A DNA stretch of 64,000 nucleotides from NCBI GenBank assembly GCA_944320495.1, contig CALUHR010000003.1, positions 96,001-160,000 of the forward strand, in the 5' to 3' direction. The position numbers and the translations under genes were made by a program. Positions 2,254 through 59,514 of the stretch are shown one piece after another; within the stretch, counting starts at the first letter, position 1, and each line of letters starts with the position of its first letter. The stretch comes from Candidatus Methanomethylophilaceae archaeon. Lineage in GTDB: Archaea > Thermoplasmatota > Thermoplasmata > Methanomassiliicoccales > Methanomethylophilaceae. The notes beneath the pieces are model-generated. The model searched no databases, had not been told where the DNA came from, and saw only the letters and a program-made list of their open reading frames with translations.

Positions 2254-2814
2254 TCGGATCAGGTCCAGGAAGTACCTGTGGACCGTGGCGTCCCCGGTGA
2301 GCTCCAGGTGGAACGCCGTGGCGATCTGCCTGCCGTTGCGCACCGCGACCGGGATCCCGTCGAGGGAGCACAGCGCCTCGGTGCCCTCCCCCAGAGAGAC
2401 GACCGAGGGGGCGCGGATGAACCTGAGGGGCACCTCTCCGAGACCGGCGAAGTCCGCACTGGAGCTGAAGCTCCCGAGCTGCCTCCCGTAAGCGTTGCGC
2501 CTCACCGTCATGGGCAGGGTGCCGAGGCAGGGCTCCCCTCCCTCGACCCGGGAGGCCAGCAGGATCATCCCCGCGCAGGTCCCCAGCACGGGCATGCCGC
2601 CGGAGACCGTCCCACGGATGCGGTCGGTCATGCCCATGTCCCCGAGGAGTTTTGCCATGACCGTGCTCTCGCCCCCCGGGATCACGAGGGCGTCCGGGTT
2701 CCTGTCGAGGTCGGAGGGCTTGCGGATCTCGAAGCATTCGGCACCCAGGTCCGAAAGCACCCTCTCGTGCTCTGCGAATGCCCCCTGGACGGCGAGAACG
2801 CCTATGCGGCTCAT
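2254..2814 (-). CDS. pdxT: PLP synthase glutaminase subunit PdxT (ends at CGA 2256-2254)
   Basis: [24 protein letters not shown] nucleophile, [12 protein letters not shown]; 186 aa then CGA; ATGA overlap with pdxS. Confidence 0.93.
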
Positions 2815-3707
2815 ATGCCGCGCTCCGCCATGCGGATTCCCTCGAGCCTCTCGATCTCGTCCTTGTTGATTCCCACCATGGCCTCGCCCAGACCAGCTGA
2901 TACCTCCGCCAGGATCTTCGGGTTGTCGTAGTTGGTGACCGCCTTCACTATGGCCGCGGCCCTCCTCTCCGGGTTCCCGGACTTGAAGATGCCAGAGCCG
3001 ACGAATACGCCCTCGGCGCCGAACTGCATCATGAGCGCCGCGTCCGCGGGCGTGGCGATGCCGCCGGCGGCGAAGTTGACGACGGGGAGCCTGCCCGTCT
3101 CGTGCACCTGGAACGCCAGGTCCAGCGGGACCTGCAGGGACTTGGCGTACTCGTAGACCTCGTCGTCCGCCAGCGCCCTCAGCTCCCTGATCTGCCTGTT
3201 CATGGTGCGCATGTGCGAGACCGCCTGGATCACGTCGCCGGTGCCGGGCTCGCCCTTGGTCCTGATCATGGATGCGCCCTCGCCTATGCGCCTGAGGGCC
3301 TCTCCGAGATCCCTGGCCCCGCATACGAAGGGCACGTCGAACCTGCGCTTGTCTATGTGGTGGACATCGTCCGCCGGGGAGAGCACCTCGCTCTCGTCGA
3401 TGTAGTCGATCTCGATCGCCTGGAGGATCTGGGCCTCCGCGAAGTGACCTATCCTGCACTTAGCCATCACGGGGATGGAAACCGCGTCCTGGATCCCCCT
3501 TATCATCTGCGGGTCGGACATCCTCGACACGCCGCCAGCGGCGCGTATGTCCGCCGGGATCCTCTCCAATGCCATGACCGCACACGCCCCAGCCTCCTCG
3601 GCTATGCGGGCCTGCTCCGGGGTGGTGACGTCCATGATAACCCCTCCCTTGAGCATCTGCGCGAGTTCCTTGTTCAGCTGATAGCGGTCCTTCCCTTCCT
3701 CAGACAT
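2811..3707 (-). CDS. pdxS: PLP synthase lyase subunit PdxS
   Basis: [63 protein letters not shown]. Confidence 0.97.
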
Positions 3708-3889
3708 CGTTGCGTCTCCTGTCCGGATAGACCCCGATGCCTATAATGGCGAACTATTTACACTTTTGTCTATTTTACATCAGCCATATACATTTATAAT
3801 CACCCTCATCTCTGCCGATTCTTTATCGACGGAACGCATCCTGATCCGCACGGGAACGGCATTCGCCGGCCCCGACTGGAGTGTTCAGA

Positions 3890-4324
3890 ATGGCGGATGA
3901 CGACATCAACGACAGGGCGTACGAAACGCTGAGGGAGACCTTCGGATCGAAGGGATGGGAATACGAAACGGTCCCGGAGAACCGCGGGATCATGTCGTCC
4001 TTCCAGGGGAACGACCTAGTGATAGGCTTCCACGCGTTCGTGAGCGACGGGATGATCCGCATGGCGGCGATCCTTTCCTTCAAGGTCCCCGCCGAGAGGA
4101 TGCGCGACTTCGTCTGGGGCCTGAACGCCATCAACTCCGACCTCCCCTTCGGGAGCTTCGCCATGAATCCCGCCGACGGATACGTGACGTTCGACTACGC
4201 CCTCGTGTACAGGCGCTCCGTCCCCCCGGCCGATCTCATGGCCGATGTGGTGGTCACTATGATCAACACGGCCGACAGGTTCGACGGCAGCCTCAAGGGG
4301 CTATCCGAGGGACGGAACGAGCGA
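3890..4324 (+). CDS. YbjN-like domain protein (ends at CGA 4322-4324)
   Basis: 144-aa ORF with LNAINSDLPFGSFAMNPADGYVTFDY; CGA sits 3 nt before the stop of the convergent MFS gene. Confidence 0.7.
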
Positions 4325-4327
4325 TCG

Positions 4328-5650
4328 TCAGCGCGACGACCCCGCCTCTCTCACGGCCTCCACCCCGAACAGGCCGTCCCCGGGACCCTTCTCCCTGGAC
4401 ACGAGCAGGAGGACCACCGCGAGGACCGAGGTGGCGGTCATCAGACCCCAGACGAGGGAGAAGTTCTCCAGCGTGTACGAGGTCCCGATTATCCACCCGG
4501 ACACCGTGGTGAACACGCTGGCGCCGAGGAACAGGAACACGTTCGCCGCGGACACGGAGGTCCCGGCCACCGCTATTGGGTACCACTCCTTAATCTGCGA
4601 GAACGAGAGGGTCATGAACCCGCCGAAGAACCCGAACAGGAAGCTCGTCAGGAACCAGAACCAGTAGCTGTCGATGCTCCCGGCGAACACGAAGATGACC
4701 GCCCACACGACGACGAATGCGGAGGTCCCCCAGACCATGGCGGCCCTCTTCGAGGTGATGATGCCGCGTGATGTCAGCGCACCGACCGCGACGGTCGTCA
4801 TTATCTTCCCGATACCGAGCGCGGTGACCATCCACGCCGAGGACAGGGCGAAGGCGTAGACGGAATCGAAGTAGGTCACGGCCCAGGTCCCCTGGAACAC
4901 CATGATCGAACCGTAGACGAGGAAGTACGCCAGCGCGCACGGCCAGAACCTCCTGCCTCCGGACATGACGATGTGAAGCCCGGTGAGGATCGGCACCCTT
5001 GCGGCCGACGGGTCGTCGGATCCCAGGCCCTCGGTCTCCTCCACCGACGGGAGGCCCCTGTGGCTGGGGTGGTCGCGTATCACGAACGCGCATGCCGCCG
5101 CGAGGACGAGGGTGATCACACCCAGGACGAGGAACACCTCCCTCCACCCGAGCGCGTCTGCCAGCATGCTAAGGGGTCCAGACGCCGCTATCGCGCCGAC
5201 GTTGCCGACGGCGATGACTATGCCGCTGAGAACCGCGAAGTCCGACTTGGGGAACCACACGGAGATGAGCTTCATGAGCGGGACGTAGACCACCGCCATA
5301 CCGGCGGCGATCATCATCTTGCCGAGCACCATCATCCAGAACTCGTCGCCCGCGAAAGTCAGCAGCGAACCGGCTGACGCCAGCAGCAGGAACGCGGTGG
5401 AGGACATCCTCGGGCCGAACCTGTCTGTCAGCAGCCCGCAGGGAATCTGCATCGCCGTGTATGTCCAGAAGTAGACGCTGCTGAGGATGCCGATGGTCCC
5501 TCCGACCTCCTCCACCATCTCCTGCCCGACAACGCTGACGGACATCCTGTGGAAGTAGACGAAGAAGTAGCCTATGGCCAGTACGGTGAATATCGCCCAT
5601 CTGTGCCTCCACAGCCTGCGGAGGATGGGATCGGTGGTCTCGCCGGTCAC
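4328..5650 (-). CDS. MFS transporter
   Basis: About 12 hydrophobic segments; motif-A-like GLLTDRFGPR. Confidence 0.9.
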   Translation of the reverse strand: MTGETTDPILRRLWRHRWAIFTVLAIGYFFVYFHRMSVSVVGQEMVEEVGGTIGILSSVYFWTYTAMQIPCGLLTDRFGPRMSSTAFLLLASAGSLLTFAGDEFWMMVLGKMMIAAGMAVVYVPLMKLISVWFPKSDFAVLSGIVIAVGNVGAIAASGPLSMLADALGWREVFLVLGVITLVLAAACAFVIRDHPSHRGLPSVEETEGLGSDDPSAARVPILTGLHIVMSGGRRFWPCALAYFLVYGSIMVFQGTWAVTYFDSVYAFALSSAWMVTALGIGKIMTTVAVGALTSRGIITSKRAAMVWGTSAFVVVWAVIFVFAGSIDSYWFWFLTSFLFGFFGGFMTLSFSQIKEWYPIAVAGTSVSAANVFLFLGASVFTTVSGWIIGTSYTLENFSLVWGLMTATSVLAVVLLLVSREKGPGDGLFGVEAVREAGSSR

Positions 5651-5714
5651 GCCACCCCGTGCCGGTCATCGTATAAAACCATACCCCGGGGGACACCCCG
5701 TGATCCTATGCCGG

Positions 5715-7121
5715 TTATCCCTTCCCGGGGACGTCCCTGCGCCTGCGGTCCCTCACGAGGACGGCGGCGATCAATCCGATCGCGGCGAGCAGCACACCGC
5801 CCCATAGCATGGCGAATCCCATCCCGTCCATGAACGCCTCCGGGGTGAGGTTCTCGATCGAGACCCCGGCGGAACCGCTACCGATAGTCAGCAGCGATGC
5901 GAACAGCGCCGTCCCGACGGTCCCGCCCATATAGTTCATGAAGTTCATCATGGAGGATCCGATGGCCTTGGACCCCTCCGGTATGTTGTCCACCACGCGT
6001 CCGGTGCACGCCGACCCGCTGAATCCCCACACTATGCCCATCGTCAGGGATGCCACGACCAGCGGGAGGAGGCCCATCTCCGGCTCCATCAGGAAGAACA
6101 TGACGTTGTACACCAGCGTGAAGAAAGACGCGGCTATGGCGCAGGACCTGCGGCCCCTGTGGTCGGTGTAGTTGCCGACAGGGATGCTCATTATGATCAC
6201 GAGGACCGAGGGCAGCAGGAGGATGAACCCGCTCATGACGGAGCTGAGGCCCAGCTCTATGTCCATGTAGAACGGCAGCACATAGAGCACGCCCATGTAC
6301 ACCAGGTTCAGGAGCAGGTATGCGATCAGAGCCAGGTCCATGTCCCTGAGCCTGAACAGACTGAGGTCGAACAGCGGACGTGAGGCGTGGGTGCTCTCCC
6401 TGACGTATCCCACGAGGAACAGCACGGCCACGACACCGGCTATGGCGGCGATCCACATCTCGTCGGGGTCGGAGATCGACTCCACGGCGATGACCATCGC
6501 CGCGACTGTGACGAACAGCAGGAACGATCCGCGCACGTCCAGCGCCCCCTTGGAGACCTCCTCCCTCGGCAGGGAGGCCCTCCCCAGGAGTATGCATGCG
6601 ATGCCCAGCGGGATGTTGATCAGGAAGATCCAGTGCCACGAGAGGTACTGCACGAGCACACCTCCCAGCGCCGGACCCAGCGCGAAGCCTGTGGACGACG
6701 CGATCGCCATTATCCCGAGGGACCTGCCGAGATGCTCCCTCGGCAGGAGCTTCACGCAGATCATCGGGGCCACCGCCACGATCGCTGCCGCCCCCACGCC
6801 CTGGAATATCCTCGACACGACGAGGAGCGAGAGCGAGGTGGACATGGCGCAGAACACGGAGAACAGCGTGAACACGGCGAACCCCGTGATGAACACGACC
6901 CTTATCCTCCCGGCGTCGGCGATCCTGCCGAAGGGAATGATGAGGCCGGCCATCATCAGGGAGTATGCGATGGACACCCACGACACGGAGCTCGTGTCCG
7001 TGTGGAAGTCGGCCGCGATGGTCGGCAGGGCGACGTTCACTATGCTCGCATCGATGTTGTCCATGAGGACACCGAGAACCATCGTCAGAATCAGCAGACC
7101 CACGGTACCCTTCGCAGACAT
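5715..7121 (-). CDS. MFS drug:H+ antiporter (DHA2-like)
   Basis: MDNIDASIVNVALPTIA, GRIADAGRIR, SRIFQGVGAA, GPALGG, WIFLINIPLG. Confidence 0.9.
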   Translation of the reverse strand: MSAKGTVGLLILTMVLGVLMDNIDASIVNVALPTIAADFHTDTSSVSWVSIAYSLMMAGLIIPFGRIADAGRIRVVFITGFAVFTLFSVFCAMSTSLSLLVVSRIFQGVGAAAIVAVAPMICVKLLPREHLGRSLGIMAIASSTGFALGPALGGVLVQYLSWHWIFLINIPLGIACILLGRASLPREEVSKGALDVRGSFLLFVTVAAMVIAVESISDPDEMWIAAIAGVVAVLFLVGYVRESTHASRPLFDLSLFRLRDMDLALIAYLLLNLVYMGVLYVLPFYMDIELGLSSVMSGFILLLPSVLVIIMSIPVGNYTDHRGRRSCAIAASFFTLVYNVMFFLMEPEMGLLPLVVASLTMGIVWGFSGSACTGRVVDNIPEGSKAIGSSMMNFMNYMGGTVGTALFASLLTIGSGSAGVSIENLTPEAFMDGMGFAMLWGGVLLAAIGLIAAVLVRDRRRRDVPGKG

Positions 7122-7219
7122 GCCAGACTAATCTGGATGTCCTTTGAAAAACCCTTCTGGCCAGCGGTTTCGGGGGAGTCTGAGACTGTATTATAAATGA
7201 CAATGCGATTCCCACCCGC

Positions 7220-7903
7220 ATGGCAGGTGTGGACAGGAGCATGGACCCGATGGAATGGGCCAAATTCGTCATCCGCAACAGGGACGAGAGGAACTACGTC
7301 GAGGCCTACTCCATCTTCATCCGCGAGTCCAAGACGGACAATCCGGAGGCGGAGTACTGCCTCGGACTCATGTACGCCCGCGGACAGGGGATCTCCAAGG
7401 ATCACGCCGCCGCCCTCAACTGGTTCCTGAAGGCGTACGACCACGGATACACCCGCTCAGGCTACTTCATCGGCAGGATGTACCTGTCTGGCCTGGGGAC
7501 CGAGAAGGACGTCCAGAAGGCCATCAGATACCTGGAGTCCGTCTCGAAGGAGGACGCCCGGGCCATGTACGAGCTCGGCCTGATCCACTTCGAGGACCGC
7601 GACGTGCCCCGCGACCTCCACAAGTCCGCCGAATGGATGCTCAGGGCGGCCAACGCGGGCAACGCGGAGGCCCAGTTCGTCCTGGGACAGTTCTACAAGG
7701 CCGGTGCCGGATTCCAGAAGGACATCGACAAGGCGGTCCACTGGCTCACATCAGCGGCGCTGAACAGGCACAAGGGCGCCCAGATCCTCCTCGGTAACAT
7801 GTACCGCACAGGGGACGGCGTCAAGGTGGACCTGGACGAGTCCGACCGCTGGTACGACATGGCCGACGGCATCAGCAACGTCCAGCCAGACGAGAAGAGT
7901 CGA
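7220..7903 (+). CDS. Sel1-like repeat protein (ends at CGA 7901-7903)
   Basis: AEYCLGLMYARGQG, AQFVLGQFYKAGAG, AQILLGNMYRTGDG; standard-code stop only at 7957. Confidence 0.85.
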
Positions 7904-7983
7904 ACTGACACCACCGGCCCCCAGGACCGGCGATCAGACCGATTATTGAGAATGTAAGGCCGGGGTCTCCCCCGGCGTTTTGA

Positions 7984-9654
7984 TCACTTGAGTCCGACGA
8001 TCCTGCCGTCCTCGAGGAGGTCCATCCTCATGGCGGCGGGGACCTTCGGGAGACCGGGCATGAGGGTCAGGGTTCCGCAGACGGGGACGATGAACCCTGC
8101 TCCGGCGGAGAGTGTGACCTCCCTGACGCTGAGGGTCCATCCCCTCGGGGCCCCCTTGACCTTGGAGTCGTCCGTCAGGGACGCCTGGGTCTTGGCGATG
8201 CACACCGGGAGGTTCCCGTATCCGTCGGCCTCCATCTGGGCGATGGCCTTGTCGGCCTCCTTGGAATAGACCACGGATCCGGCGCCGTAGATGTTGGTGG
8301 CGACGGCCTCGATCTTGTCCTTGATCGGGGAGTCGGTCTGGTACAGGAAGTGGAAGTCGGGCTTCACGGTGTCCAGGACGTCGAGGACGGTGTTGGCCAG
8401 CTCGACGGCCCCCTCGCCTCCCTTGGAGAAGGCCTCGGAGAACGCGCACCTGACGCCGATCTCCCTGCAGTGGTCCATGATGATGTTCATCTGCTCGGGG
8501 GTGTCGTGCTGGAACCTGTTGACGGCCACGACGACGGGGACGCCGTAGGAGGACATGTTCTCGATGTGCTTGTCCAGGTTGCAGAGGCCGAACCTCAGGG
8601 CGTCGTCCGTCAGGGTGGACTCGTCCTCGAGCCTGGCGCCGCCGTGGGTCATGAGGGCGCGGATGGATGCGACGAGGACGACGCAGTCGGGCCTCATTCC
8701 GGACTCCCTGCAGACGATGTCCATGAACTTCTCCCCTCCGAGGTCGGAGGCGAAACCCGCCTCGGTGATGACATAGTCACCGAGGGAGAGCGCGGCCTTG
8801 GTGGCGATGACGCTGTTGGTGCCGTGGGCGATGTTGGCGAACGGGAAGCCGTGGACGAACACGGGCTGCCCCTCGAGGGTCTGGACGAGGTTGGGGTTGA
8901 TGGCGTCCTTGAGGAGTACCATCATGGCGCCGACGCATCCCAGATCCTTCACGGTGACGGGCTTGTTGTCGTAGGTGTATGCGACGACCATCCTCTCGAG
9001 CCTCCTGCGGAGGTCGGCCCTGTCGTTGGAGAGGGCGAGGATGGCGGAGATCTCGGAGGCGGATGTGATGAGGAAACCCGCCTCGTGGGGCACACCTCCG
9101 AGGATCCTGTCCCTTCCGAGCCCGGTGACGATGTTCCTCAGCTCGCGGGCGTTGATGTCCATGGCCTTCTTGAGGACGACGCGGGTGGGGTCGATGTTGT
9201 GGACGTTGTCCCTCACGAGCTCGTTGTCCACGATGGCGGACAGGAGGTTGTGCGCCGCGGTGACCGCGTGGATGTCACCGGTGAAGTGGAGATCGATGTC
9301 CCACATGGGGTAGACCTGGGAGTAGCCGCCTCCGGTGGCGCCTCCCTTGATTCCGAAGGTGGGTCCGATGGAGGGCTCCCTGAGGGCTCCGACGACCTTC
9401 TTCCCGAGTCTGCCAAGACCCTGGATGAGTCCGATGGTGGTGACGGTCTTCCCCTCGCCGGCGGGCGTGGGGGTGATGGCGGAGACCATCACGAGCTTAC
9501 CCTTCTTGTCGCCCATCTTGGCGAGCCTGTCGTAGGGGATCTTCGCGATGTACTTGCCGTAGGGCTCGATGTCATCCTCGGTGAGTCCTATGGTCGCTGC
9601 GACCTCCTTGATCGGCTTGACTTTCGCATTCTGGGCGATCTCGATGTCATCCAT
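7984..9654 (-). CDS. fhs: Formate--tetrahydrofolate ligase
   Basis: ITPTPAGEGKT, LREPSIGPTFGIKGGATGGG, DLHFTGDIHA, GFPFANIAHG, CIAKTQ, MPGLP. Confidence 0.97.
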   Translation of the reverse strand: MDDIEIAQNAKVKPIKEVAATIGLTEDDIEPYGKYIAKIPYDRLAKMGDKKGKLVMVSAITPTPAGEGKTVTTIGLIQGLGRLGKKVVGALREPSIGPTFGIKGGATGGGYSQVYPMWDIDLHFTGDIHAVTAAHNLLSAIVDNELVRDNVHNIDPTRVVLKKAMDINARELRNIVTGLGRDRILGGVPHEAGFLITSASEISAILALSNDRADLRRRLERMVVAYTYDNKPVTVKDLGCVGAMMVLLKDAINPNLVQTLEGQPVFVHGFPFANIAHGTNSVIATKAALSLGDYVITEAGFASDLGGEKFMDIVCRESGMRPDCVVLVASIRALMTHGGARLEDESTLTDDALRFGLCNLDKHIENMSSYGVPVVVAVNRFQHDTPEQMNIIMDHCREIGVRCAFSEAFSKGGEGAVELANTVLDVLDTVKPDFHFLYQTDSPIKDKIEAVATNIYGAGSVVYSKEADKAIAQMEADGYGNLPVCIAKTQASLTDDSKVKGAPRGWTLSVREVTLSAGAGFIVPVCGTLTLMPGLPKVPAAMRMDLLEDGRIVGLK

Positions 9655-9890
9655 GAGCAGATGTTACCAGTTCGCCCACTTAAAGGTTGACGCCGGTTAA
9701 AAATCCGGGACGCCGTAGGACGCCGCGGGATGCATGCCGTTCCCCGGGATCGTCCAGCATCCGACGGGTGCTCCCAGGTCTTTTAAAATAAGCGAAATTT
9801 GTTTAATCATACCATATATAATTTTAATCATTCCATTCATTTTTTTAGGAATTACTAACTATTAAATACATTTAGGATATCCGAACAGAC

Positions 9891-10196
9891 ATGAATCCAG
9901 CATCACCTTGTGTGACCGCCACTGCAGCGCCATGCAGCGAACAGAAGCTCGGGTGCTCCATGGGCGTCCCTGGTGTCCCGATTTCCATGATGAGGGTCGG
10001 GGAGGTCGGGACCGTCGTCAGCATCTCCGGCAAGGAGGACGTGAGGAGGTTCCTGAACGAGCTCGGGTTCACACCGGGCACGGAAGTCAGGGCCGTGAGC
10101 CAGGCCGGAGGCAACATCATCCTCGAGGTCAAGGACTCGAAGATTGCCATCGACCGCCACATGGCCAACAGGATTCTGTTCTGCCCCGCGAGATGA
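9891..10196 (+). CDS. feoA: FeoA family protein (start uncertain)
   Basis: RRFLNELGFTPGTEV...IILEVKDSKIAIDRHMANRI. Confidence 0.85.
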   Translation: MNPASPCVTATAAPCSEQKLGCSMGVPGVPISMMRVGEVGTVVSISGKEDVRRFLNELGFTPGTEVRAVSQAGGNIILEVKDSKIAIDRHMANRILFCPAR

Positions 10197-10200
10197 TAGC

Positions 10201-10422
10201 ATGAAGACACTGAGAGACGCCGATGTCGGCTCCACCGTCACCGTGGTGAGGCTGCACGGCGAGGGCGCTCTCAAGAGGCACATCATGGACATGGGCATCA
10301 CCAAAGGATGCCAGATCTATGTGCGCAAGGTCGCCCCGCTCGGGGATCCCGTGGAGATCACCGTGCGCGGCTACGAGCTGAGCCTCAGGAAGAGCGACGC
10401 GGAGAGCATCGAGATCGCCTGA
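10201..10422 (+). CDS. feoA: FeoA family protein
   Basis: KRHIMDMGITKG...APLGDPVEITVRGYELSLRK. Confidence 0.93.
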   Translation: MKTLRDADVGSTVTVVRLHGEGALKRHIMDMGITKGCQIYVRKVAPLGDPVEITVRGYELSLRKSDAESIEIA

Positions 10423-10472
10423 CGATCCTCTGGCCCCGTCCCCCATGCGCGGGCCGTTCTGGAGTGAGAACA

Positions 10473-12683
10473 ATGAGTCTTACAATTGCTTTGGCCGGAA
10501 ATCCAAACAGCGGGAAGACCACCCTCTTCAACAAGCTGACGGGTGCTAACCAGCGCGTGGGGAACTGGCCGGGGGTAACCATCGACAAGAAGACCGGGAA
10601 GGTCCGCGGCCACGACATCGAGGTCGTCGACCTGCCCGGGATCTACTCGCTGTCGCCGTACTCCCCGGAGGAGCTGGTGTCCAGGAACTACCTTCTCAAG
10701 GAGACCCCGGACGCCATCATCAACATCGTGGATGCGACCAACCTCGAGAGGAACCTCTTCCTCACGCTTCAGATCCTCGACCTGGGAATCCCCACGGTCG
10801 TCGCCCTGAACATGATGGACCAGGTGGAGAAGCTCGGGGACAGGGTCGACGTCGGGAAGCTGTCCAAGGAGCTGGGATGCCCGGTAGTGCCGATATCGGC
10901 CATCAAGAACCAGGGCATCCAGGACCTGATCGAAAGGATAGAGAAGGCCGGCGGATCCGGGGAGGTCCCGGAACCCGTCCTCTTCGACGGGGACATGGAG
11001 GGCCTCATCGCCGAGGCCAGAGATGCCCTCGGGTCCAAGGTCCCTGCGGACCGCTCCCGCTTCTACGCCGTCAAGCTGGTCGAGAACGACCACCAGATCT
11101 GCACCGAGTTCGCATCCGAGAAGGAGTCCATCGCCGCCTCGGTATCCGAGGTCGAGAGGAAGAGGGACGACGAGATCGACTCGATCGTCGCCGACTCCCG
11201 CTACAACCGCATCTCGGACATCGTCGGGGACTGCGTCAAGAGGGCACCCCGCGACGAGAGGGGCACGCTCTCAGACAGGATCGACAGGGTCGTCACCAGC
11301 AGGATCTGGGGAATCCCGATCTTCCTCGGAGTTCTCGCCGTCGTGTTCCTCGGCATCATCGGGTTCGCCTGGGGCGACTTCGAGGTCGTAGGAATCGGGA
11401 CATGGTGCACGGACTGGCTCAACGGGTTCATCGAGGACCCCATCCAGTCCACCGTGGCCGACTGGTGCGCCGACAACGGCGTCAGCGACGCCATGACGGG
11501 CCTGCTCGTCGACGGCATCATCGGAGGAGTGGGGGCCGTCATCGGATTCCTGCCCCAGATGCTCATCCTATTCCTCGCCCTGTGCATACTCGAGGACATC
11601 GGGTACATGTCGAGGATCGCCTTCGTCATGGACCGCGTGTTCAGGCACTTCGGGCTCTCCGGCAAGTCCCTCATCCCCGTCCTCGTGGGAACCGGATGCG
11701 GCGTCCCCGGGATCATGGCCTCCCGCACCATCGAGAGCGAGAGGGACCGCAGGATCACCGCGATGACCACCACGTTCATCCCCTGCGGAGCCAAGCTGCC
11801 CGTCATCGCCATGCTGACCTCCGCCGTCTTCGGCGGCAACGGACTCGTCGCCGTCGGATGCTACGTCATGGGGATAATCTGCATCCTCATCTCCGGAATC
11901 ATCCTCAAGAAGTTCAGGAGCCTCTCCGGAGCCGCGACCCCGTTCATCATGGAGCTGCCCCCCTACCACATCCCGTCCGCCTCCAACATCGTCAAGGGGA
12001 CCCTCGACAGGGGCTGGGCGTTCGTGAAGAAGGCCGGTACCATCATCCTGCTCGCGTGCATCCTGATCTGGTTCCTCTCCAACTTCACCTGGGGCCTGGA
12101 GTTCAACGGCGGAGAGACCGGGAACTCCATCCTGGCGTCCATCGGAGAGGTGCTCATGTACGTCTTCATGCCCCTCGGCTGGGGCGACAACTGGGAGCTC
12201 ACCGTGGGATCCATCACCGGGCTCATCGCCAAGGAGAACATCGTCGGAACGTTCGGCACCCTGTTCGGCGTCGAGGCGGGAGAGAACGGCGAGGGTCTCG
12301 AGGCCGTCCTCGGGTCCATGCTGTCCACCGCCTCCGGCTGGTCGTTCCTCGCCTTCAACCTGATCTGCGCCCCGTGCTTCGCCGCCATCGGAGCCATGCA
12401 CAGGGAGCTCGGGTCCTGGAAGGACACGGGCATCGCCGTCGCCTACCAGTGCATCCTGGCGTACTGCGTCGGGCTGGTCCTCTACGGCATCCTCGGATGC
12501 GTCGGAGGATGGAACACCGTCGTGATCGACGGCGTGACCGTGGACAACGGCGTGCCGATCGGAAGCACCATCGCCGCCATCGTCGTGATAGCCGCGTTCG
12601 TCTACATCCTGTGGGCCAAGGACCCGTTCCGCCAGCTCGCCGGCAGGGACGAGTACGACGCGGAGGACGAGGTGAAGGCATGA
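10473..12683 (+). CDS. feoB: Ferrous iron transporter FeoB
   Basis: GNPNSGKTT, VGNWPGVT, DLPGIYSL, DATNLERNL, NMMD, FIPCGAKLP, multi-TM C-terminus. Confidence 0.97.
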   Translation: MSLTIALAGNPNSGKTTLFNKLTGANQRVGNWPGVTIDKKTGKVRGHDIEVVDLPGIYSLSPYSPEELVSRNYLLKETPDAIINIVDATNLERNLFLTLQILDLGIPTVVALNMMDQVEKLGDRVDVGKLSKELGCPVVPISAIKNQGIQDLIERIEKAGGSGEVPEPVLFDGDMEGLIAEARDALGSKVPADRSRFYAVKLVENDHQICTEFASEKESIAASVSEVERKRDDEIDSIVADSRYNRISDIVGDCVKRAPRDERGTLSDRIDRVVTSRIWGIPIFLGVLAVVFLGIIGFAWGDFEVVGIGTWCTDWLNGFIEDPIQSTVADWCADNGVSDAMTGLLVDGIIGGVGAVIGFLPQMLILFLALCILEDIGYMSRIAFVMDRVFRHFGLSGKSLIPVLVGTGCGVPGIMASRTIESERDRRITAMTTTFIPCGAKLPVIAMLTSAVFGGNGLVAVGCYVMGIICILISGIILKKFRSLSGAATPFIMELPPYHIPSASNIVKGTLDRGWAFVKKAGTIILLACILIWFLSNFTWGLEFNGGETGNSILASIGEVLMYVFMPLGWGDNWELTVGSITGLIAKENIVGTFGTLFGVEAGENGEGLEAVLGSMLSTASGWSFLAFNLICAPCFAAIGAMHRELGSWKDTGIAVAYQCILAYCVGLVLYGILGCVGGWNTVVIDGVTVDNGVPIGSTIAAIVVIAAFVYILWAKDPFRQLAGRDEYDAEDEVKA

Positions 12684-12856
12684 ACGGGAACCTCGTCGTC
12701 GGAGCGATCGTCATAGCGGTCGTCGCGGCCTCCCTGGCATACCTGGTATGGCAGAGAAGGAGGGGCAGATGCAGCTGCGGCATGGACTGCAGCTGCAGGA
12801 AGCCCGCCGGCAAGGACGACGGGGAGACCTGCGACTGCTGCAGGAAGGACCGATGA
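12680..12856 (+). CDS. FeoB-associated Cys-rich small membrane protein (ends CGA-TGA)
   Basis: ATGA overlap with feoB; TM helix, RRRGRCSCGMDCSC; last codons GAC CGA TGA. Confidence 0.8.
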   Translation: MNGNLVVGAIVIAVVAASLAYLVWQRRRGRCSCGMDCSCRKPAGKDDGETCDCCRKDR

Positions 12857-12936
12857 CCGCAGGGGGCCCAGGCCCCCGAACAAACGGCCCGGCCGGGTGC
12901 CGGGCCATCAACCCAATACATCGCGAGGTCGGAGAA

Positions 12937-13128
12937 ATGGACATGAACATCGTCGTGGGCGGCGTGATCGCACTGATCGTAATAGCCGACGTGGCCTATC
13001 TCATCAGGAAGAGGCGCAGGGGCGAGAACTGCTGCGGCTGCACCGGATGCTCCGGCCGCGGATGCGGATCCTGCCACGGCCCATCGCTCGTCATGGTCGA
13101 AACGGAAGGGCCCGACAAGGATAACCGA
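12937..13128 (+). CDS. Second FeoB-associated Cys-rich small membrane protein (ends at CGA 13126-13128)
   Basis: [47 protein letters not shown]. Confidence 0.78.
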
Positions 13129-13187
13129 TGTACGGAACGAAGCTTCCGACCGCATGTTTTATTATAAAGACCCAGGATGCTGACGAC

Positions 13188-13322: not shown

Positions 13323-13325
13323 TCC

Positions 13326-14252: not shown

Positions 14253-14306
14253 GGCCGAGCCAGTGCCGTGCATCTTATTTTTAATTTGTAGGCCGGTTCA
14301 CGGGTC

Positions 14307-14495
14307 ATGATCAAAGGCCCGCTGGTGTATGCAGCAGTCGCCCTGGCATTCATCCTCATCGCGATGTCGTTCGTCATCGCCGCCTTCCCCGATATGATCG
14401 AGACCCTCGGCATCATAACCGCGGTGGTGGCCGTCCTCGTCGTCATAGTCCTCGTCGGCATCCTGATCAAGACCAGGAGGGGTTCCGGCGAGCGA
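14307..14495 (+). CDS. Small two-helix membrane protein (ends at CGA 14493-14495)
   Basis: 62 aa, two hydrophobic helices then KTRRG; standard code would run it through the whole arsR gene. Confidence 0.65.
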
Positions 14496-20072: not shown

Positions 20073-20073
20073 G

Positions 20074-36991: not shown

Positions 36992-38104
36992 ATGAATCCC
37001 CCGAAGGTCTACTACACATCCATGCGGTGCGAGGTCGGAGACAGCCTCCTGGACAAGCTGGAGAGACTGGTCCGCGCGGCCGGCATCGAGGACATCGACA
37101 TGGACCGCAAGTTCGTGGCCATCAAGACCCATTTCGGCGAGTACGGCAACCTCTCGTACCTCAGGCCGAACTACGCCAAGACCATAGCGGACATCGTGAA
37201 ACTCCAGGGGGGCATACCTTTCCTCACTGACTGCAACACCCTGTACGTGGGCAAGAGGAAGAACGCCATCGAGCACATGGACACCGCCAACCTCAACGGG
37301 TTCTCCCCGATGTCCACGGGATGCCAGATTGTGATCGCCGACGGCCTGAAGGGCGACGATGACGTCGAGATTCCCATCGACGGGGAGTACGTGAAGAACG
37401 CCAAGATCGGACGCGCCATCGCCGATTCCGACGTCATCATCACTCTCAGCCACTTCAAGTGCCACGAGCAGACCGGGTTCGGCGGCGCCCTCAAGAACCT
37501 GGCCATGGGGTGCGGATCCCGCAGGGGGAAGATGGAGATGCACTCCGCCGGGAAGCCGTGCGTCGATGCCGAGAAGTGCAGGGGCTGCGGGAAGTGCATG
37601 CAGTTCTGCGCCGCCGATGCCATAGAGATGGTCGACCGCAAGGCGGAGATCGTCGAGGACAGGTGCGTCGGGTGCGGGAGATGCGTGAGCGCCTGCCCGT
37701 TCGACGCCGTGGAGGCGTTCATGGACCAGAAGTTCGACATAGTGAACGCCAAGATCGTCGAGTACGCCATGGCCGCGACCAAGGGGAAGGAATGCTTCCA
37801 CATCAGCGTCATCTGCGACGTGTCCCCGTTCTGCGACTGCCACGGCGAGAACGACGTGCCAGTGGTTCCGGACGTGGGCATACTCGCATCCACGGACCCC
37901 GTGGCCCTCGACAGGGCGAGCGTCGATCTGGTGCAAAAGCAGCAGATCATTCCCGGGTCCCGCCTCTGGGACAACTGCAGCGGGAGGAGGCCATCGGACC
38001 TCCTGACGTGCAACCAGCCCGCCACCAACTGGATGTCCACCTTCGAGCACGCCGCAAAGATGGGATTCGGCAGCTCCGAGTACGAGCTCGTGGAAGTGAG
38101 ATGA
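36992..38104 (+). CDS. DUF362-like Fe-S protein with 2[4Fe-4S] ferredoxin domain
   Basis: VAIKTHFGEYGN, SHFKCH, FGGALKNLAMG, CRGCGKCMQFC, CVGCGRCVSACP, CDCH. Confidence 0.85.
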   Translation: MNPPKVYYTSMRCEVGDSLLDKLERLVRAAGIEDIDMDRKFVAIKTHFGEYGNLSYLRPNYAKTIADIVKLQGGIPFLTDCNTLYVGKRKNAIEHMDTANLNGFSPMSTGCQIVIADGLKGDDDVEIPIDGEYVKNAKIGRAIADSDVIITLSHFKCHEQTGFGGALKNLAMGCGSRRGKMEMHSAGKPCVDAEKCRGCGKCMQFCAADAIEMVDRKAEIVEDRCVGCGRCVSACPFDAVEAFMDQKFDIVNAKIVEYAMAATKGKECFHISVICDVSPFCDCHGENDVPVVPDVGILASTDPVALDRASVDLVQKQQIIPGSRLWDNCSGRRPSDLLTCNQPATNWMSTFEHAAKMGFGSSEYELVEVR

Positions 38105-38394
38105 TGGAGGCCATGATCTCGGACCTGTTCGAGATCCTGATGCTGCTCGGCTTCGCCGCAGCCTGGCCCTTCAACATCATCCGCGCATGGCGCGCCCGCA
38201 CCGCCGTCGGCACCAGCCCTTACTTCATGATCGTCATCGAGTTCGCATACCTCTGCGGCATGATCAGCAAGGCCGTCGTCGCCGACTGGTGGCCGGTGTT
38301 CCCGTTCTACGTGCTCGACTTCTGTCTCGTCGCGGTGGCCCTGATGATATACGTCAGGAACAGGCGGATGGATGCCGCCAAAGGCAGGCCGCGA
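38101..38394 (+). CDS. Small PQ-loop-like membrane protein (ends at CGA 38392-38394)
   Basis: 97 aa, three hydrophobic helices, FAAAWPFNIIRAWRART; ATGA overlap with upstream gene. Confidence 0.72.
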
Positions 38395-42571: not shown

Positions 42572-43128
42572 TCGAGTTCACCCTCTCCCGCGTCGTCATG
42601 TGCGTGTGCGGGATCGCGCTGCTCGCCGCCGTCACCGGGATTCTGGGCGCCGTCAACGACGATTCCGAGAACGGGATGATGGACGGGCTCGCCGAGTCGG
42701 TGGCGGACGTCCTGGATAGGTTCGAGGACTCTGAGACGGACGAGCTGACACTGCGCGGAGTGGAGCTGCTGCCGTCCGATGATCATGTCCTGACGGTGTC
42801 CGGACATGTCGTCACCATAACCTGCGGCGACAGGACGTCCAAGGCTGCCACGTCCTACGGCGGGGAGTTCGAGCTCCGCCGTTCGACCGCGGTCACGCTG
42901 TCGAGATCGGTTCCCGAAGGTCTCGGCGATGTGCCTGACGGCATCGGTGAACACGTCGATCTCCTCGGGCGTGTTGTATATGTACGTGGAGGCGCGGGCG
43001 CTGCCGTCGATCCCGCGGGAGACGTAGAAGGGATGTGCGCAGTGCATGCCGGAGCGGATCATCACGCCGGCCATGCTGTCGAGCATCATGCCGATGTCGT
43101 GGGCGCCGAGGCCGTCGATGTTGAACGA
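42568..43128 (+). CDS. Membrane-anchored hypothetical protein; 3' end unresolved (first CGA 43126-43128, first standard stop 44283)
   Basis: ATGA overlap, MIEFTLSRVVMCVCGIALL; coding-like to about 42900, then antisense to the desulfurase gene. Confidence 0.45.
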
Positions 43129-44112
43129 GAACACGCCTCCCCTCAGACGGGGCTCCTCGGGACCGACGACATGCAGGCCGCGGACATCCTCGAGGGACGA
43201 GCATATGCGCTCCATGAGCATGAGGTCCCACCTCTCGACCTCGTCCATGCCTATCTTCGACAGGTATTCCAAGGCCGCCTTGGTGCCGATGATGCCGGCG
43301 TAGTCCTGCAGACCCGCCTCGAACCTGTCCGGTATCGGGGCAAGGTTGACGGAGTCGTAGGTGGCCAGTCCGACGGTGCCGCCTCCGAGCTCCAGCGGGC
43401 GCATCCTCTCCAGGACCTCGCGCCTGCCGTACATCACGCCCATGCCGGACGGCCCGAGCATCTTGTGGACGGACATGCAGTAGACGTCCGCCCCAAGATC
43501 CTCGAGGTCTATCGGCATGTGCGGGGCGGCCTGGGCGCCGTCCACTATGACGATGGCACCGTAGTCGTGGGCGATCTCCGCGACCGCCTTCACCGGGACT
43601 GTGCATCCGGTGACGTTGCCCGCATGCTGAACGGAGACCACCTTCACATCATGGTCCATGCACCTGTGGAAAGATTCCAGGTCGAACGTGCCGTCGGCCC
43701 TCGACTTGGTCATGCGCCTCCTTATCCCCACCGTCTCCTGGAGACGGAGCCAGGGCACATGGTTGGAGTTGTGCTCGGTGTCGGTGGTGACCACCACATC
43801 CCCCCTCTTCAGCGGTACGCCGTATGCCGCCGTGTTGAGTGCGCCGGTGCAGTTGCGCGTGAACGCATAGCAGTCGGGATCCTTCGTGTGGAAGAAGCGG
43901 GCGAGGGTCTCGCGGGTCTCGTCGATGGCGATGGACACGCGTGTCGCCATGGAGTGGACGCTGCGGCCCCCGCAGGCGGGGTAGTCCTCGTAGTACTCGG
44001 TGATCGCACGTATGACGCTGTCCGGCCTGAGGGACTGGCATGCACTGTCCAGATAGATCCCCTTGCCCTTGCGGATGGTCGGGAAGTCCGCACGCACCGA
44101 GTCGACGTCCAT
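42907..44112 (-). CDS. SufS/CsdA-type cysteine desulfurase (ends at CGA 42909-42907)
   Basis: VRADFP, IYLDSA, EHNSNHVPW, VDGAQ, SVHKMLGPSG, RFEAG, IRSGMHCA, RASTYIYNT; 401 aa. Confidence 0.92.
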
Positions 44113-44206
44113 GACGGTACGATGGGCTTCGCCGTAATAAGACCTGGGTATGCGCCGGAGCGCGGAGTTCGCCATCTTTATAGTCGCGCCATCCATCATC
44201 TCGGAC

Positions 44207-45112
44207 ATGGCATCGCTGAAAACCCGCGTCGGGACGCTGGACCTCGAGAGGCCCGGCATGGTCGCGTCCGGGATCATGGATGAGACCGGACCGTCGCTGG
44301 TGCGCATGATGGAATGCGGCTGCGGTGCGGTTGTCACTAAATCGATAGGGCTGCAGCCCAACCAGGGCCACGCCAATCCCTGCTTCACCGAGGTGGACGG
44401 CGGATACGTGAACGCCATGGGGCTCCCCAACCCGGGAATCGAGGAGTTCGCCTCCGAGATGGAGGTCGCTGTGAGGGCGGGGCCCGTCATCGGATCGATA
44501 TACGGAGCCGGACCAGGGGACTTCTCCGAACTCGCCGGCAGGATGGAGGACTACGGTGCCAGCGCCGTGGAGCTGAACCTCTCCTGCCCCCACGCCAAGG
44601 GATTCGGCATGGAGGTCGGGACCGACCCGGCCATGGTCGGATCCATCGTCTCCGCCGTGAAGTCGGCGGTATCCATACCCGTATGGGCCAAGCTCACGCC
44701 CAACACCCACATCCTGCAGGACATCGGACGTGCGGTGCAGGACGCCGGCGGTGACGCAATCGTCGCGATCAACACCTTGAAGGCCATGGTCATCGAGCCG
44801 GAGTTCGCCAGGCCGCTCCTGAGCAACAGGTTCGGCGGGCTCTCGGGGAAGTGCCTCCTGCCGGTCGGCGTCAGGGCGATCTACGACCTGAGAACGGCCG
44901 TCGACATCCCTCTGGTGGGTGTCGGAGGCATCGAGACCTGGAGGGACGCGGCCCAGTACATCATGGCCGGCGCATCCGCGTTCCAGATCGGCAGCGCCGT
45001 CGGGACGATAGGGCCGGAGGTCTTCTCCTTGATAAACGACGACCTTTCGGCATTCATGGACGAGTACGGCTACGGCCACATCTCCGACATGGTGGGGGTG
45101 GCCCATGACTGA
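44207..45112 (+). CDS. pyrD: Dihydroorotate dehydrogenase, catalytic subunit
   Basis: VVTKSIG, NAMGLPNPG, ELNLSCPH, WAKLTPN, INTLKAM, GGLSG, VGVGGI. Confidence 0.95.
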   Translation: MASLKTRVGTLDLERPGMVASGIMDETGPSLVRMMECGCGAVVTKSIGLQPNQGHANPCFTEVDGGYVNAMGLPNPGIEEFASEMEVAVRAGPVIGSIYGAGPGDFSELAGRMEDYGASAVELNLSCPHAKGFGMEVGTDPAMVGSIVSAVKSAVSIPVWAKLTPNTHILQDIGRAVQDAGGDAIVAINTLKAMVIEPEFARPLLSNRFGGLSGKCLLPVGVRAIYDLRTAVDIPLVGVGGIETWRDAAQYIMAGASAFQIGSAVGTIGPEVFSLINDDLSAFMDEYGYGHISDMVGVAHD

Positions 45113-45869: not shown

Positions 45870-46300
45870 CTCAGGCGGGCCACATCACGGTGGTCCACGG
45901 GAACCTCACCGTGGACGTCCCCCGCAGGCTGTTCAGGGGACCGGACTGCGAGATAGACGAGGAGGCCGCCAGACCATTCAGGGACATGGTCAGGGCCAGG
46001 TACCCGTGGGTCTCCGAGAGCTCCATGGACGTCCTGATGAGCAAGGCCCGCAAGGAGATGATCCGCGTCATCGACGAGGAGACCGGAGGCAGGAGCCACA
46101 GCTCCAACCTCGCCCAGCAGGGCAAGCTCGACGAGGCGATTGCCCACATGAGGCTCCACATAGAGCAGGACCCAGAGGATGCGGACTCGTGGTACGCCCT
46201 CGGGAACCTGCTCTGCCAGGCCGGAAGGACCGACGAGGGATACAGGGCGTTCAACAGGGGACGCGAGCTCGCTCAGAAGGCCCAGAGAAGAGGTCGTTGA
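45866..46300 (+). CDS. TPR-containing protein
   Basis: ATGA overlap; GKLDEAI...DPEDADSWYALGNLLCQAGRTDEG. Confidence 0.8.
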   Translation: MTQAGHITVVHGNLTVDVPRRLFRGPDCEIDEEAARPFRDMVRARYPWVSESSMDVLMSKARKEMIRVIDEETGGRSHSSNLAQQGKLDEAIAHMRLHIEQDPEDADSWYALGNLLCQAGRTDEGYRAFNRGRELAQKAQRRGR

Positions 46301-47111
46301 TCGCTTCGACGACCTCCGGGACCGTGGCGCCCCACGGAACGCGCACGACGTCTCCGTCGCGCTCGTGACCCTGCTTCACCTTGCAGCATTTCACTATCGT
46401 CCTCTCCCCCGGAACGACGTAGTCCGCAGGGCAGACGTTTATGAACACGGGAACGTCGGAGCCGTACAGCTCACGGTAGATCCTGCGGGACAGATGGCAT
46501 CCTATCAGCGTGACCTCGCCGTCGACCTCGGGCGCATCGTCCAGGAAGAGGAACGGACGGTCCGCGGTGAGATGGGAGACCCTGCACGGGAACATGACGA
46601 TGGGCGTGAACACATCCGACACACGGTCGGCCATGTCTATGATGCGGTCCTCGGGGATTATTGGATGCTCCACGAAACCGGATGCGAGCGCCCTGCGGAC
46701 GAGAACCCCGAGCTTCGAGGGCGACGGGGGCACGTTGTCCACCACGACGAGGCTCTGCGGCTCCAGGTCCTTCACGTAGCTTATGTGCGAGAACATCCCG
46801 CGGACCACCACGGCCTTGCCCGGATGCCTCGCCTGCACCTCGGCCATGGCCGGGAGGTTGAGGACATCCAGGTCCGGGATCTCCTCGAAAACCGTGTCTT
46901 CGGGCATTGACACGATCTCATAGCCGTCCAGATCCCTGAAGAGACCTGTGCCGGGATGCTTGCGGAGCTCCACCACGGCGTATTCGTCCCCGTTCCTGAG
47001 GACAAGAGCCTCCGTGCGGACGTATGACCTCCAGCCGTCCATCAGGGACGCAACGGATTCGCGGGTCAGCGGCACATCCACATCCTTCATGGAGACATCC
47101 TTGCAGTGCAT
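46269..47111 (-). CDS. Conserved hypothetical Cys-containing protein (ends at CGA 46271-46269)
   Basis: 280 aa, MHCKDVSMKDV, MFPC, IGCHLS, INVCP, VKCCKV. Confidence 0.7.
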
Positions 47112-58020: not shown

Positions 58021-58088
58021 GCTGCCCTCCGCATCGGTCGAAGTGTTCGGGAGAACTCTAAAAATACACGAAAGGATGCGTTATCCCG

Positions 58089-59144
58089 ATGGGAAAAGCC
58101 GATACCCATGTCCATACCGAATTCTCGGGGTTCCAGAAGCTCGGGGTGATCAAGTTCCCCGAGTCGGTCGCGCAACCCGAGACGCAGGTGGACAGGGCCC
58201 GCGACAACGGCATGGACGTCTTGTGCATCACGGACCACGACGAGGTCCACGGCGCGATGATCGCCCAGAAGTACGCGCATCAGAAGTACGACGACATCGA
58301 GGTAGTGGTCGGCGAGGAGGTCACCACCAGGGACGGCGAGATCATCGGCCTGTTCCTGACCGAGAGGGTGCCTGACATGCTGTCCGTCGAGGAGACCGTC
58401 GATATCATAAGGGAGCAGGGCGGCCTCGTCATCGCCCCGCATCCGTTCAGCTTCCACGTGCCGGGCCTGAAGGAAAGGATCCTCGACCTGGACATAGACG
58501 GCTTCGAGGTCATCAACGGCGGTCATCCGGACGCCTACACCAACATGTTCGCCAGGCTGGTCATGGACCGCTATCCCGGCAGATGGTGCGAGACCTCCGG
58601 GAGCGACGCTCACTCCGTCTACACCACGGGATACAACTGGACCGAGTTCCCCGGCAGGACCGCGGACGACCTGCGCCGGGCCATACTCGATAAGACCACC
58701 AAGGCCTGCGGAACGGCGGCCCCGGTCTTCGGACAGGTCCAGTGGAGCGTGGACGTCGTCATCGGCGGACAGAAGCTCATGTACAGGTCACTCAAGGGGA
58801 GACTCAAGAACGTCCCGAAGGACCACCTCGTCGAGAAGATCAACAGTATAAGCGACCTGAAGAAGGCCACCGGGATCTTCGCCGGGATGCTCTACGTCAT
58901 CCCGCCGCTGTCCTTCATCGCCACCGTCGCCAGCACTTCGTTCCTGAGGAAGGGGGCCGAGAGGATGACCATGGGGATTCCCGACAGGCTTGAGTTCATC
59001 GACTCCGTCATAAGGGAGGTCGACGCCAACGGCGGCCCCGGCCACCACCGCCCGGCATACCTGGACGAGAGGGACGAGAGCCCGCTCGCCGCATACAAGG
59101 GCCTTCCGTTCAAACTGCCCTTCGACGTCGCCCGCAACAAATGA
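58089..59144 (+). CDS. PHP-domain protein
   Basis: DTHVHT, ITDHD, GEEVTT, APHPF, GSDAH. Confidence 0.88.
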   Translation: MGKADTHVHTEFSGFQKLGVIKFPESVAQPETQVDRARDNGMDVLCITDHDEVHGAMIAQKYAHQKYDDIEVVVGEEVTTRDGEIIGLFLTERVPDMLSVEETVDIIREQGGLVIAPHPFSFHVPGLKERILDLDIDGFEVINGGHPDAYTNMFARLVMDRYPGRWCETSGSDAHSVYTTGYNWTEFPGRTADDLRRAILDKTTKACGTAAPVFGQVQWSVDVVIGGQKLMYRSLKGRLKNVPKDHLVEKINSISDLKKATGIFAGMLYVIPPLSFIATVASTSFLRKGAERMTMGIPDRLEFIDSVIREVDANGGPGHHRPAYLDERDESPLAAYKGLPFKLPFDVARNK

Positions 59145-59169
59145 TATCCGCCGACGCGTTCCACCCCCG

Positions 59170-59514
59170 ATGGAAGCATACAAGATCGGCGTCACGGTGC
59201 CTCTCGGCACCGAGCATGAGATGATGGACACCCTCGACGGATACTTCTCCCCGCTCTATCCCGGATACGACCACGTTTACTCGTGGTGGGAGACCGAGGG
59301 GAGCTGGAGACCCCTGGAGGGGTCGCACCCGCACCAGGGGGAGATCGGCAGGATCGAACGCGCCCGCGAGGTGCGCATAGAGTTCGCGGTACATGCCCGG
59401 GACGCGCCCGCGGTGGTCCGCCGCATCGCGGAGGTCCATCCCTTCGAGGAACCCGCGATAGACGTGATCCCGCTGATCCCGTGGAAGGACGTCGCTGTGC
59501 TGGACGGTAGTTGA
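59170..59514 (+). CDS. Small NIF3/YqfO-like protein
   Basis: WRPLEGSHPHQG, EVRIEF, HPFEEPAIDVIPL. Confidence 0.75.
   Translation: MEAYKIGVTVPLGTEHEMMDTLDGYFSPLYPGYDHVYSWWETEGSWRPLEGSHPHQGEIGRIERAREVRIEFAVHARDAPAVVRRIAEVHPFEEPAIDVIPLIPWKDVAVLDGS

Follow-up and report, generated by a model that had tools for sequence, protein, structure and literature searches.

Can an arginine (Arg) codon serve as a stop signal in the genes of a free-living archaeon? The question is raised by a 64,000-nucleotide stretch of DNA (C3:96001-160000, referred to here as the window) from a chicken-gut methanogen of the Methanomethylophilaceae, in which ten genes carry an in-frame CGA at the apparent end of their protein. 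The assembly, labelled G000, comprises 1.77 Mb in 14 contigs, with 61% GC and about 1,600 genes, and the organism has been sequenced in several independent DNA studies. A search with its release factor aRF1 against named records placed it in the genus to which 'Ca. Methanoprimaticola sp. MG2' belongs. Relatives also carry G labels; 22 species of the genus were sampled for codon counts and 37 for aRF1. Our answer is that CGA is likely to be a fourth, somewhat leaky stop codon, read at the ribosome, in G000 and its genus, with aRF1 contending against a weakened tRNA and sensing its own level through a CGA in its own gene.

Genome-wide coding statistics, the C-termini of orthologues and the interchange of TGA and CGA among species all support the proposal of the first-pass annotation that CGA signals termination. 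For the statistics, a codon log-odds score was trained on the middles of long frames. With CGA treated as a fourth stop, the caller based on this score returned open reading frame (ORF) ends at TGA (1131), CGA (384), TAG (70) and TAA (55) in G000. At first-terminal sites, 309 CGA codons stood beside 1005 TGA and 43 TAA. In all, some 309-384 genes, or about 22%, are CGA-ended. In long stop-to-stop frames rich in GC at third codon positions (GC3), the number of CGA codons per decile was 632, 329, 102, 40, 5, 11, 22, 38, 70 and 216. CGA is thus concentrated at both ends of such frames and nearly missing from their middles, whereas other rare Arg codons hold a plateau. In-frame codons were also classed by whether the 40 codons before and the 40 codons after them had a coding look. 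It can be seen that, first, CGA separated coding from coding sequence in 4 cases and coding from noncoding sequence in 352; the same counts were 37 and 1039 for TGA, and 5 and 51 for TAA. Secondly, the rare sense codons TTT (82 and 46), CAA (103 and 60) and CGG (410 and 334) were distributed quite otherwise. The pattern of CGA at gene ends is far beyond chance.

The change in composition at CGA is as sharp as that at TGA: between adjacent five-codon bins, GC3 drops from 0.86 to 0.55 at CGA and from 0.83 to 0.58 at TGA. A TAG just before the CGA was found at only 1 of the 309 first-terminal CGAs. The median distance to the next standard stop is 26 codons after CGA and likewise 26 after TGA and, because the two distributions are equal, no true stop lies hidden just downstream of CGA. 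Three of the four CGAs with coding sequence on both sides proved to be gene junctions; the fourth, codon 78 of aRF1, is clearly internal. The caller also returned TAG-ended ORFs in which high GC3 persisted past the TAG, for example at window positions 4431-4667 (plus strand), and these were set aside as a probable antisense-frame artefact (TAG being the complement of the sense codon CTA). In the ARAGORN results for the assembly, tRNA-Pyl, tRNA-Trp and tRNA-Tyr were all absent; introns or missing contigs may account for this.

At C13:194145 (minus strand), GmhA (SIS domain) ends at CGA and, one codon on, a Val codon in the same frame opens a GmhB-like phosphatase. This Val codon is a possible GTG start; translation table 11 would call a fusion protein.

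All ten CGA codons of the window are present at the coordinates and on the strands first given for them. The genes are listed below, together with the number of codons by which each frame runs on past CGA under table 11.

2254..2814, minus strand: pdxT (186 amino acids); CGA at 2256-2254; run-on of 502 codons, fusing with the downstream Sel1 gene.
3881..4324, plus strand: YbjN-like gene; CGA at 4322-4324; run-on of 148 codons, antisense to the next gene; Pfam YbjN match 3-121 of 126.
7229..7903, plus strand: Sel1-repeat gene; CGA at 7901-7903; run-on of 17 codons.
12680..12856, plus strand: small FeoB-associated Cys-rich membrane gene of 57 codons, putative start taken from the translation; CGA at 12851-12853, followed by TGA at 12854-12856; run-on of 0 codons.
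12937..13128, plus strand: second small FeoB-associated Cys-rich membrane gene, 63 codons, putative start; CGA at 13126-13128; next standard stop a TAA 12 codons on.
14307..14495, plus strand: small membrane gene of 62 codons; CGA at 14493-14495; run-on of 112 codons.
38101..38394, plus strand: PQ-loop-like membrane gene; CGA at 38392-38394; run-on of 23 codons.
42907..44277, minus strand: SufS-type cysteine desulfurase; CGA at 42909-42907; run-on of 119 codons; Aminotran_5 match 1-371 of 371.
46269..47111, minus strand: DUF7714 gene; CGA at 46271-46269; run-on of 5 codons; profile match 6-277 of 280.
59492..60052, minus strand: hypothetical gene (186 amino acids); CGA at 59494-59492; run-on of 99 codons, rich in Arg, Pro and Gly.

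Of the 62 ORFs that a simple caller based on codon bias placed in the window, 8 were CGA-ended; the limit of the caller is 60 codons, and the two small FeoB-associated genes fall under it. The only tRNA of the window is tRNA-Cys(GCA), at 47187-47260.

The clearest case is pdxT. Its protein stops at the C-terminus customary for the family. The Pfam SNO match to PdxT (1-184 of 188) ends where the CGA stands, as do the matches given above for the SufS-type and DUF7714 proteins, and the CGA of pdxT is followed by ten codons containing TTTATAA and then by the Met of the Sel1-repeat gene. Because the pdxT frame runs through the CGA and TTTATAA into the Sel1 gene, table 11 fuses two unrelated proteins. 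The TTTATAA (within window 2215-2256, minus strand) lies about 23 nucleotides upstream of the second ATG of this Sel1 gene; the spacing fits the promoter of a leaderless transcript and supports pdxT and Sel1 as separate genes. At the exact stop codon of pdxT, TGA is found in G002, G006 and G014 and CGA in G018 and G010, while the CGA of G004 is one alignment column off and that of G013 stands two codons later. Interchange of TGA and CGA at the same site, for which related genomes were to be searched, is thus seen at pdxT; in addition, G043 has TGA at exactly the CGA codon of both the SufS-type gene and the DUF7714 gene.

The YbjN-like gene of G018 has AGA at the CGA codon and ends four codons later with CGA TGA. 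Orthologues of the Sel1-repeat gene (7229..7903) have TGA within a few codons in G004, G009, G013, G014 and G002 and a CGA end in G010; those of the small membrane gene (14307..14495) in G013 and G010 stop at a TGA that is between one and three codons away from where the alignment ends. The PQ-loop-like gene gave no Pfam match at E <= 0.001, and its orthologue in G043 stops at TAA within a few codons. For the hypothetical gene at 59492..60052 no orthologue was found among the sampled stretches of relatives; its coding signal stops at the CGA. The CGA at 12851-12853 is uninformative alone, because it may be either a stop with a back-up TGA or a terminal Arg.

To place these cases in a wider frame, all called proteins of G000 were searched against about 1.5 Mb of sampled DNA of relatives, and alignments reaching the C-terminus were used. 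The end of an orthologue was counted if it fell within 12 codons of the end of the CGA-ended protein. Within the genus, such orthologues ended at TGA or TAA in 53 cases and at CGA in 24; in other genera of the family they ended at TGA, TAA or TAG in 35 cases and at CGA in 1, and in other families of the order in 33 and 2 cases respectively. When all relatives were pooled, a standard stop stood at or near the place of the CGA 121 times and CGA 27 times. Because the ends of the orthologues fall so close to the CGA, they are without the extensions that table 11 would add, and the alignment check that the first-pass annotation had called for speaks in favour of termination. By comparison among genomes it could be shown that about 22% of the genes of G000 end at CGA, that their orthologues have standard stops there and that in-frame CGA has been purged.

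The extent of the purge was measured by homology-aligned codon counts, the longest ORF having proved an unreliable guide to the frame where GC is high. Most of the 22 sampled species of the genus have 0-1 CGA per 2,000-22,000 aligned codons; examples are G008 (0 of 18,561) and G015 (1 of 22,258), while G013 has 2 and G010 has 7. Sense use was suspected for the seven CGAs of G010, but each turned out to stand at a gene end or gene junction, upstream of a start or within a broken gene. Among the other families of the order, 6-36 CGAs occur per 1,600-5,500 aligned codons, mostly at Arg; to judge by these alignments, CGA is an ordinary Arg codon there. How often genes end at CGA varies by degrees across the genus, with shares of about 37% in G010, about 22% in G000, 10-15% in G013, G018, G004 and G006, and 0-4% in G008, G015, G043, G007 and G011. 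Many other genera of the Methanomethylophilaceae are near-free of sense CGA, yet have no gene-end use of CGA in the samples.

Many species show the trait, in assemblies that different groups and pipelines produced independently and that include the RefSeq record of 'Ca. Methanoprimaticola sp. MG2'. Over 2235-2910, 12613-13244 and 13868-14710, the window is identical to DNA contigs of run X1. In X2, which belongs to another study, a strain about 97% similar keeps the CGA of pdxT despite eight differences nearby. DNA contigs have C at the CGA sites they cover; among the matches listed, RNA contigs of two metatranscriptome studies had no coverage of CGA sites.

How, then, might CGA come to be read as a stop? 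The first-pass annotation had offered three mechanisms: altered specificity of aRF1, stalling at an unassigned codon, and editing. As regards the second, CGA is not a plain unassigned codon. All five Arg tRNAs of G000 were found by ARAGORN, with tRNA-Arg(UCG) at C13:413317-413390; CGG is still used as sense and has a separate tRNA-Arg(CCG). Every genome of the genus that was examined has tRNA-Arg(UCG). UCG-anticodon homologues were aligned from 19 species of the genus, and a second version of 77 nucleotides occurs in G008, G015 and G007; loss of the tRNA in these three, as suggested by an anticodon-arm pattern search and BLAST, was discarded when a covariance-model search found the 77-nucleotide version. 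Since the tRNA has not been lost, CGA is better called leaky, or of dual meaning, than unassigned.

The retained tRNA is abnormal in its anticodon arm. Across the 19 species four pairs of the anticodon stem co-vary with compensatory changes, while 31:39 is always mismatched (A.A, C.A or U.C), which leaves an effective stem of 4 base pairs (bp). Position 33 is C in G008 (by eye also in G015 and G007), against the near-universal U. In contrast, G116, from a different genus of the family, and G024, from a different family, have a canonical tRNA-Arg(UCG) with U33 and five pairs in the stem. From this pattern we infer that tRNA-Arg(UCG) has been kept on purpose but weakened.

The single aRF1 gene of G000 lies at C2:85936-87165 on the minus strand and itself contains an in-frame CGA, at codon 78 (C2:86932-86934, minus strand), in the context GCT CGA CTC AAA, with the frame continuous across it. 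In a gap-free alignment, codon 78 corresponds to the conserved Arg of the RLK segment that follows NIKS, that is, to R81 of human eRF1. Exactly one CGA, always at codon 78, is found in the aRF1 gene of 37 of 37 species of the genus. Synonymous sites nearby vary freely, but the context NCT CGA CTN AAR is conserved: the codon before the CGA has T in third position throughout (it is GCT or TCT, each a rare codon), and the CGA is followed by CTN without exception and then mostly by AAA. Other families of the order have CGC, CGG, CGT, AGG or AGA at codon 78, and CGA at various other Arg positions of aRF1. In other genera of the Methanomethylophilaceae, aRF1 mostly contains a single CGA, at Arg25 (15 species), Arg11 (5) or Arg78 (4); Arg50 and Arg123 are further positions of a single CGA in these genera. 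Several 20-kb samples from these genera have the aRF1 CGA as their only one among 4,000-5,000 aligned codons. On this distribution, the aRF1 CGA may be a device of the whole family that arose before genes came to end at CGA.

The protein also differs from its relatives near the decoding motifs. Genus-specific residues are Q53 (human F56), T63 and M65 (human R68) next to NIKS, and A119 (human T122) before YxCxxxF. In the closely related G000 and G018, residue 28 is Ser (RST, not RGT); every other aRF1 sampled has the GTS-loop Gly at this place. Arg123, in the motif YRC, is equivalent to L123 of yeast eRF1. Yeast eRF1/eRF3 detectably decodes CGA as a stop, in competition with tRNA-Arg, and the UGA-biased eRF1 mutants L123R, L123F and L123Y do so more strongly (Wada and Ito 2018, PMC7379694). 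The likeness to the present case is that a homologous factor treats CGA as a near-UGA and that aRF1 of the genus has Arg between the Tyr and Cys of YxCxxxF, as in L123R. The difference is that the yeast reaction is a side activity at low level, observed with reporters, while here it is proposed as the normal end of hundreds of genes, fixed in evolution. Of the three mechanisms, altered aRF1 specificity fits best, to judge by the CGA purge, the genus-specific residues and the conserved aRF1 CGA.

Several features are those of a weak stop. A second stop-like codon occurs within 5 codons at 125 of 309 CGA ends (40%) and at 228 of 1005 TGA ends (23%; Fisher p = 2e-9). A terminal CGA is followed by T in 56% and by A in 7% of cases, compared with 30% T after TGA, and at the aRF1 site the next base is C; the earlier impression, from ten flanks, that the CGAs share no motif does not hold genome-wide. 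The CGA share of gene ends falls from 39% in the lowest fifth of codon bias to 5% in the highest (Mann-Whitney p = 3e-29), a trend that may include some false ORFs among the low scores and that holds through the top three fifths.

We therefore favour, as stated at the outset, a stop codon contested between aRF1 and a tRNA. aRF1 would recognise CGA as a near-relative of UGA and would outcompete the retained tRNA-Arg(UCG) with its impaired anticodon arm. Under GC pressure, drift from T to C would turn TGA stops into CGA, mostly in weakly expressed genes. The CGA at codon 78 of aRF1, with C as the following base, would be the sensor: when aRF1 is plentiful, termination would occur at this codon, and when it is scarce, readthrough by the tRNA would yield full-length aRF1. 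In this way aRF1 probably senses its own level. The factor acting on CGA, the leakiness and the feedback loop are what we infer from genome comparison.

A broader form of this proposal extends it beyond the genus. CGA may be deliberately contested across much of the Methanomethylophilaceae, between a stop read by aRF1 and low-level decoding as Arg by a tRNA-Arg(UCG) of weakened anticodon arm, with a CGA sensor in the N-terminal domain of nearly every aRF1 of the family and with drift of TGA to CGA, in the GC-rich Methanoprimaticola branch, at up to a quarter or more of gene ends. We put this forward tentatively, at somewhat less than an even chance.

A number of observations weigh against a contested stop with aRF1 as its reader and sensor. 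Other invariant Arg columns of aRF1 also hold one codon, Arg186 being CGT in 37 of 37 species, so that invariance of the codon alone is weak evidence. (Arg186 stands just after the GGQ motif, and CGT is a minor codon; it is a second invariant rare codon of aRF1.) Inspection of the decoding motifs, which the first-pass annotation had suggested, brought out the neighbouring residues and the Ser described above, but NIKS and YxCxxxF themselves are intact. The Arg of YRC is present also in other families, which read CGA as Arg; because they share it, Arg123 is at most a predisposition, and no single aRF1 residue explains the change. No conserved RNA structure was found after the CGA at codon 78, where RNAalifold gave -11 to -13, within about 1.5 standard deviations of other gene windows. 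It is also unusual for a reassigned codon to keep its cognate tRNA, as CGA does; with this tRNA in place, competition is to be expected wherever CGA serves as a stop.

Nor is the purge complete. Internal in-frame CGA, said to be missing from the genes of the window, was indeed not found there; elsewhere in the genome there are exceptions, at Arg78 of aRF1 and in a Flavodoxin_4 gene (C8:55277-55837), whose in-frame CGA at C8:55685 lies mid-domain and is spanned by the Pfam match. From its sequence this gene would be either dependent on readthrough or a recent pseudogene. There is perhaps a second internal CGA, at C5:178733, where a soluble domain precedes the CGA and two predicted transmembrane helices and an acidic tail downstream still look coding; termination and readthrough at this site might yield a soluble and a membrane-anchored form.

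Among the alternatives, the one that survives best is that CGA is a starved codon at which the ribosome stalls and is then rescued (by Pelota/ABCE1 splitting and peptidyl-tRNA hydrolase), with no recognition by aRF1. It would explain the abnormal anticodon arm of tRNA-Arg(UCG), it agrees with the avoidance of CGA in strongly codon-biased genes, and a putative Pelota-like paralogue occurs in these genomes (weak second hits). However, rescue would be slow and costly as a way of ending a fifth of all genes, and yeast eRF1 itself can act on CGA (PMC7379694). Stalling also gives no reason for the aRF1 CGA or for the genus-specific residues beside the decoding motifs, and we think this explanation unlikely.

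Editing of the mRNA from C to U, which would turn CGA into UGA and present the ribosome with a standard stop, appears less probable again. The two codons are one C-to-U change apart, and stop-creating editing of CGA to UGA occurs in plant organelles. On the other hand, site-specific editing would not need the purge of in-frame CGA from all genes of the genus, and an enzyme that edited every CGA would face hundreds of sites that share no motif beyond the T-rich +4 position. One gene of the cytidine-deaminase fold (PF00383) is present in nearly every genome, those of other families included, and a second copy is sporadic; a genus-specific PF00383 deaminase was not found in the genomes of the order, other deaminase families not having been searched. 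The altered tRNA-Arg(UCG) and the conserved aRF1 CGA would both be left unexplained by editing.

That CGA is simply Arg, the pattern being due to assembly or base-calling error at TGA or to real long extensions, can hardly be maintained: a tRNA-Arg(UCG) gene does exist and one or two genes have an internal CGA, but the pattern recurs in independent assemblies of many species from different pipelines and in contigs of separate studies, and the extensions are noncoding in composition, distributed as after TGA (median 26 codons, up to hundreds) and missing from orthologues.

A contested CGA stop has partial counterparts in known systems. Sense codons have become stops in organelles (NCBI tables 2, 22 and 23), namely AGA/AGG in vertebrate mitochondria, UCA in Scenedesmus and UUA in Thraustochytrium mitochondria. 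As there, gene ends are marked by a codon to which the standard code gives an amino acid, and which is missing from conserved internal positions. Organelle genomes, however, are tiny, with few genes, and have usually lost the cognate tRNA, whereas G000 is a free-living archaeon with about 1,600 genes, CGA at about 22% of ends, the tRNA kept and the use of CGA graded across its genus. Bacterial RF2 (prfB) is autoregulated through an in-frame UGA that needs a +1 frameshift. In both cases a release-factor gene carries, early in frame and in a conserved context, a codon that its own product would read as a stop. No programmed +1 frameshift is indicated at codon 78 of aRF1, where an Arg tRNA would read through and feedback is proposed from sequence comparison; because the frame is continuous, aRF1 is not a member of the prfB mechanism, although the logic may be shared. 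A codon of dual meaning is also known in methanogens, where UAG is a stop or pyrrolysine.

Two further comparisons may be made. In trypanosomatids and ciliates, the tRNA-Trp that decodes UGA has an anticodon stem of 4 bp (PMC13092985). There, too, a codon is contested by release factor and tRNA, and the length of the anticodon stem has changed; the direction is opposite, since there a stop gains sense and the altered tRNA reads better, while here a sense codon gains stop function and the tRNA is presumed to read worse. In two archaeal assemblies from hydrothermal vents, in which CGG encodes Trp, CGA was absent from protein domains and the possibility of a stop was raised and left open (Melnykov, bioRxiv 2026, 10.64898/2026.04.02.715157). 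Those archaea belong to another lineage, tRNA-Arg(UCG) was not found in them and CGG is reassigned, whereas in G000 CGG is sense, tRNA-Arg(UCG) is kept and gene ends were examined. A literature search found no description of a CGA stop in Methanoprimaticola or Methanomethylophilaceae.

Published accounts have cellular genomes reassigning stop to sense or sense to sense, not sense to stop, and screens of the Codetta type are unable to detect a new stop (PMC8629427; 10.64898/2026.04.02.715157). If the proposal is correct, this would be the first sense-to-stop code change described outside organelles, in a cellular genome, and a new class of code change for free-living organisms; a feedback loop of a release factor would also, for the first time, be seen to rest on a sense codon that has been reassigned. 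Current annotations would then fuse or over-extend hundreds of proteins in these genomes. The retained tRNA and the aRF1 CGA make the competition model testable, and a culture or enrichment may exist, because the RefSeq assembly of 'Ca. Methanoprimaticola sp. MG2' has about 420x coverage. The genus would offer a natural system in which an eRF1-type factor has widened its recognition of the first base from U to C, and its species, graded from 0-2% CGA stops to more than 30%, would represent a code change in progress.

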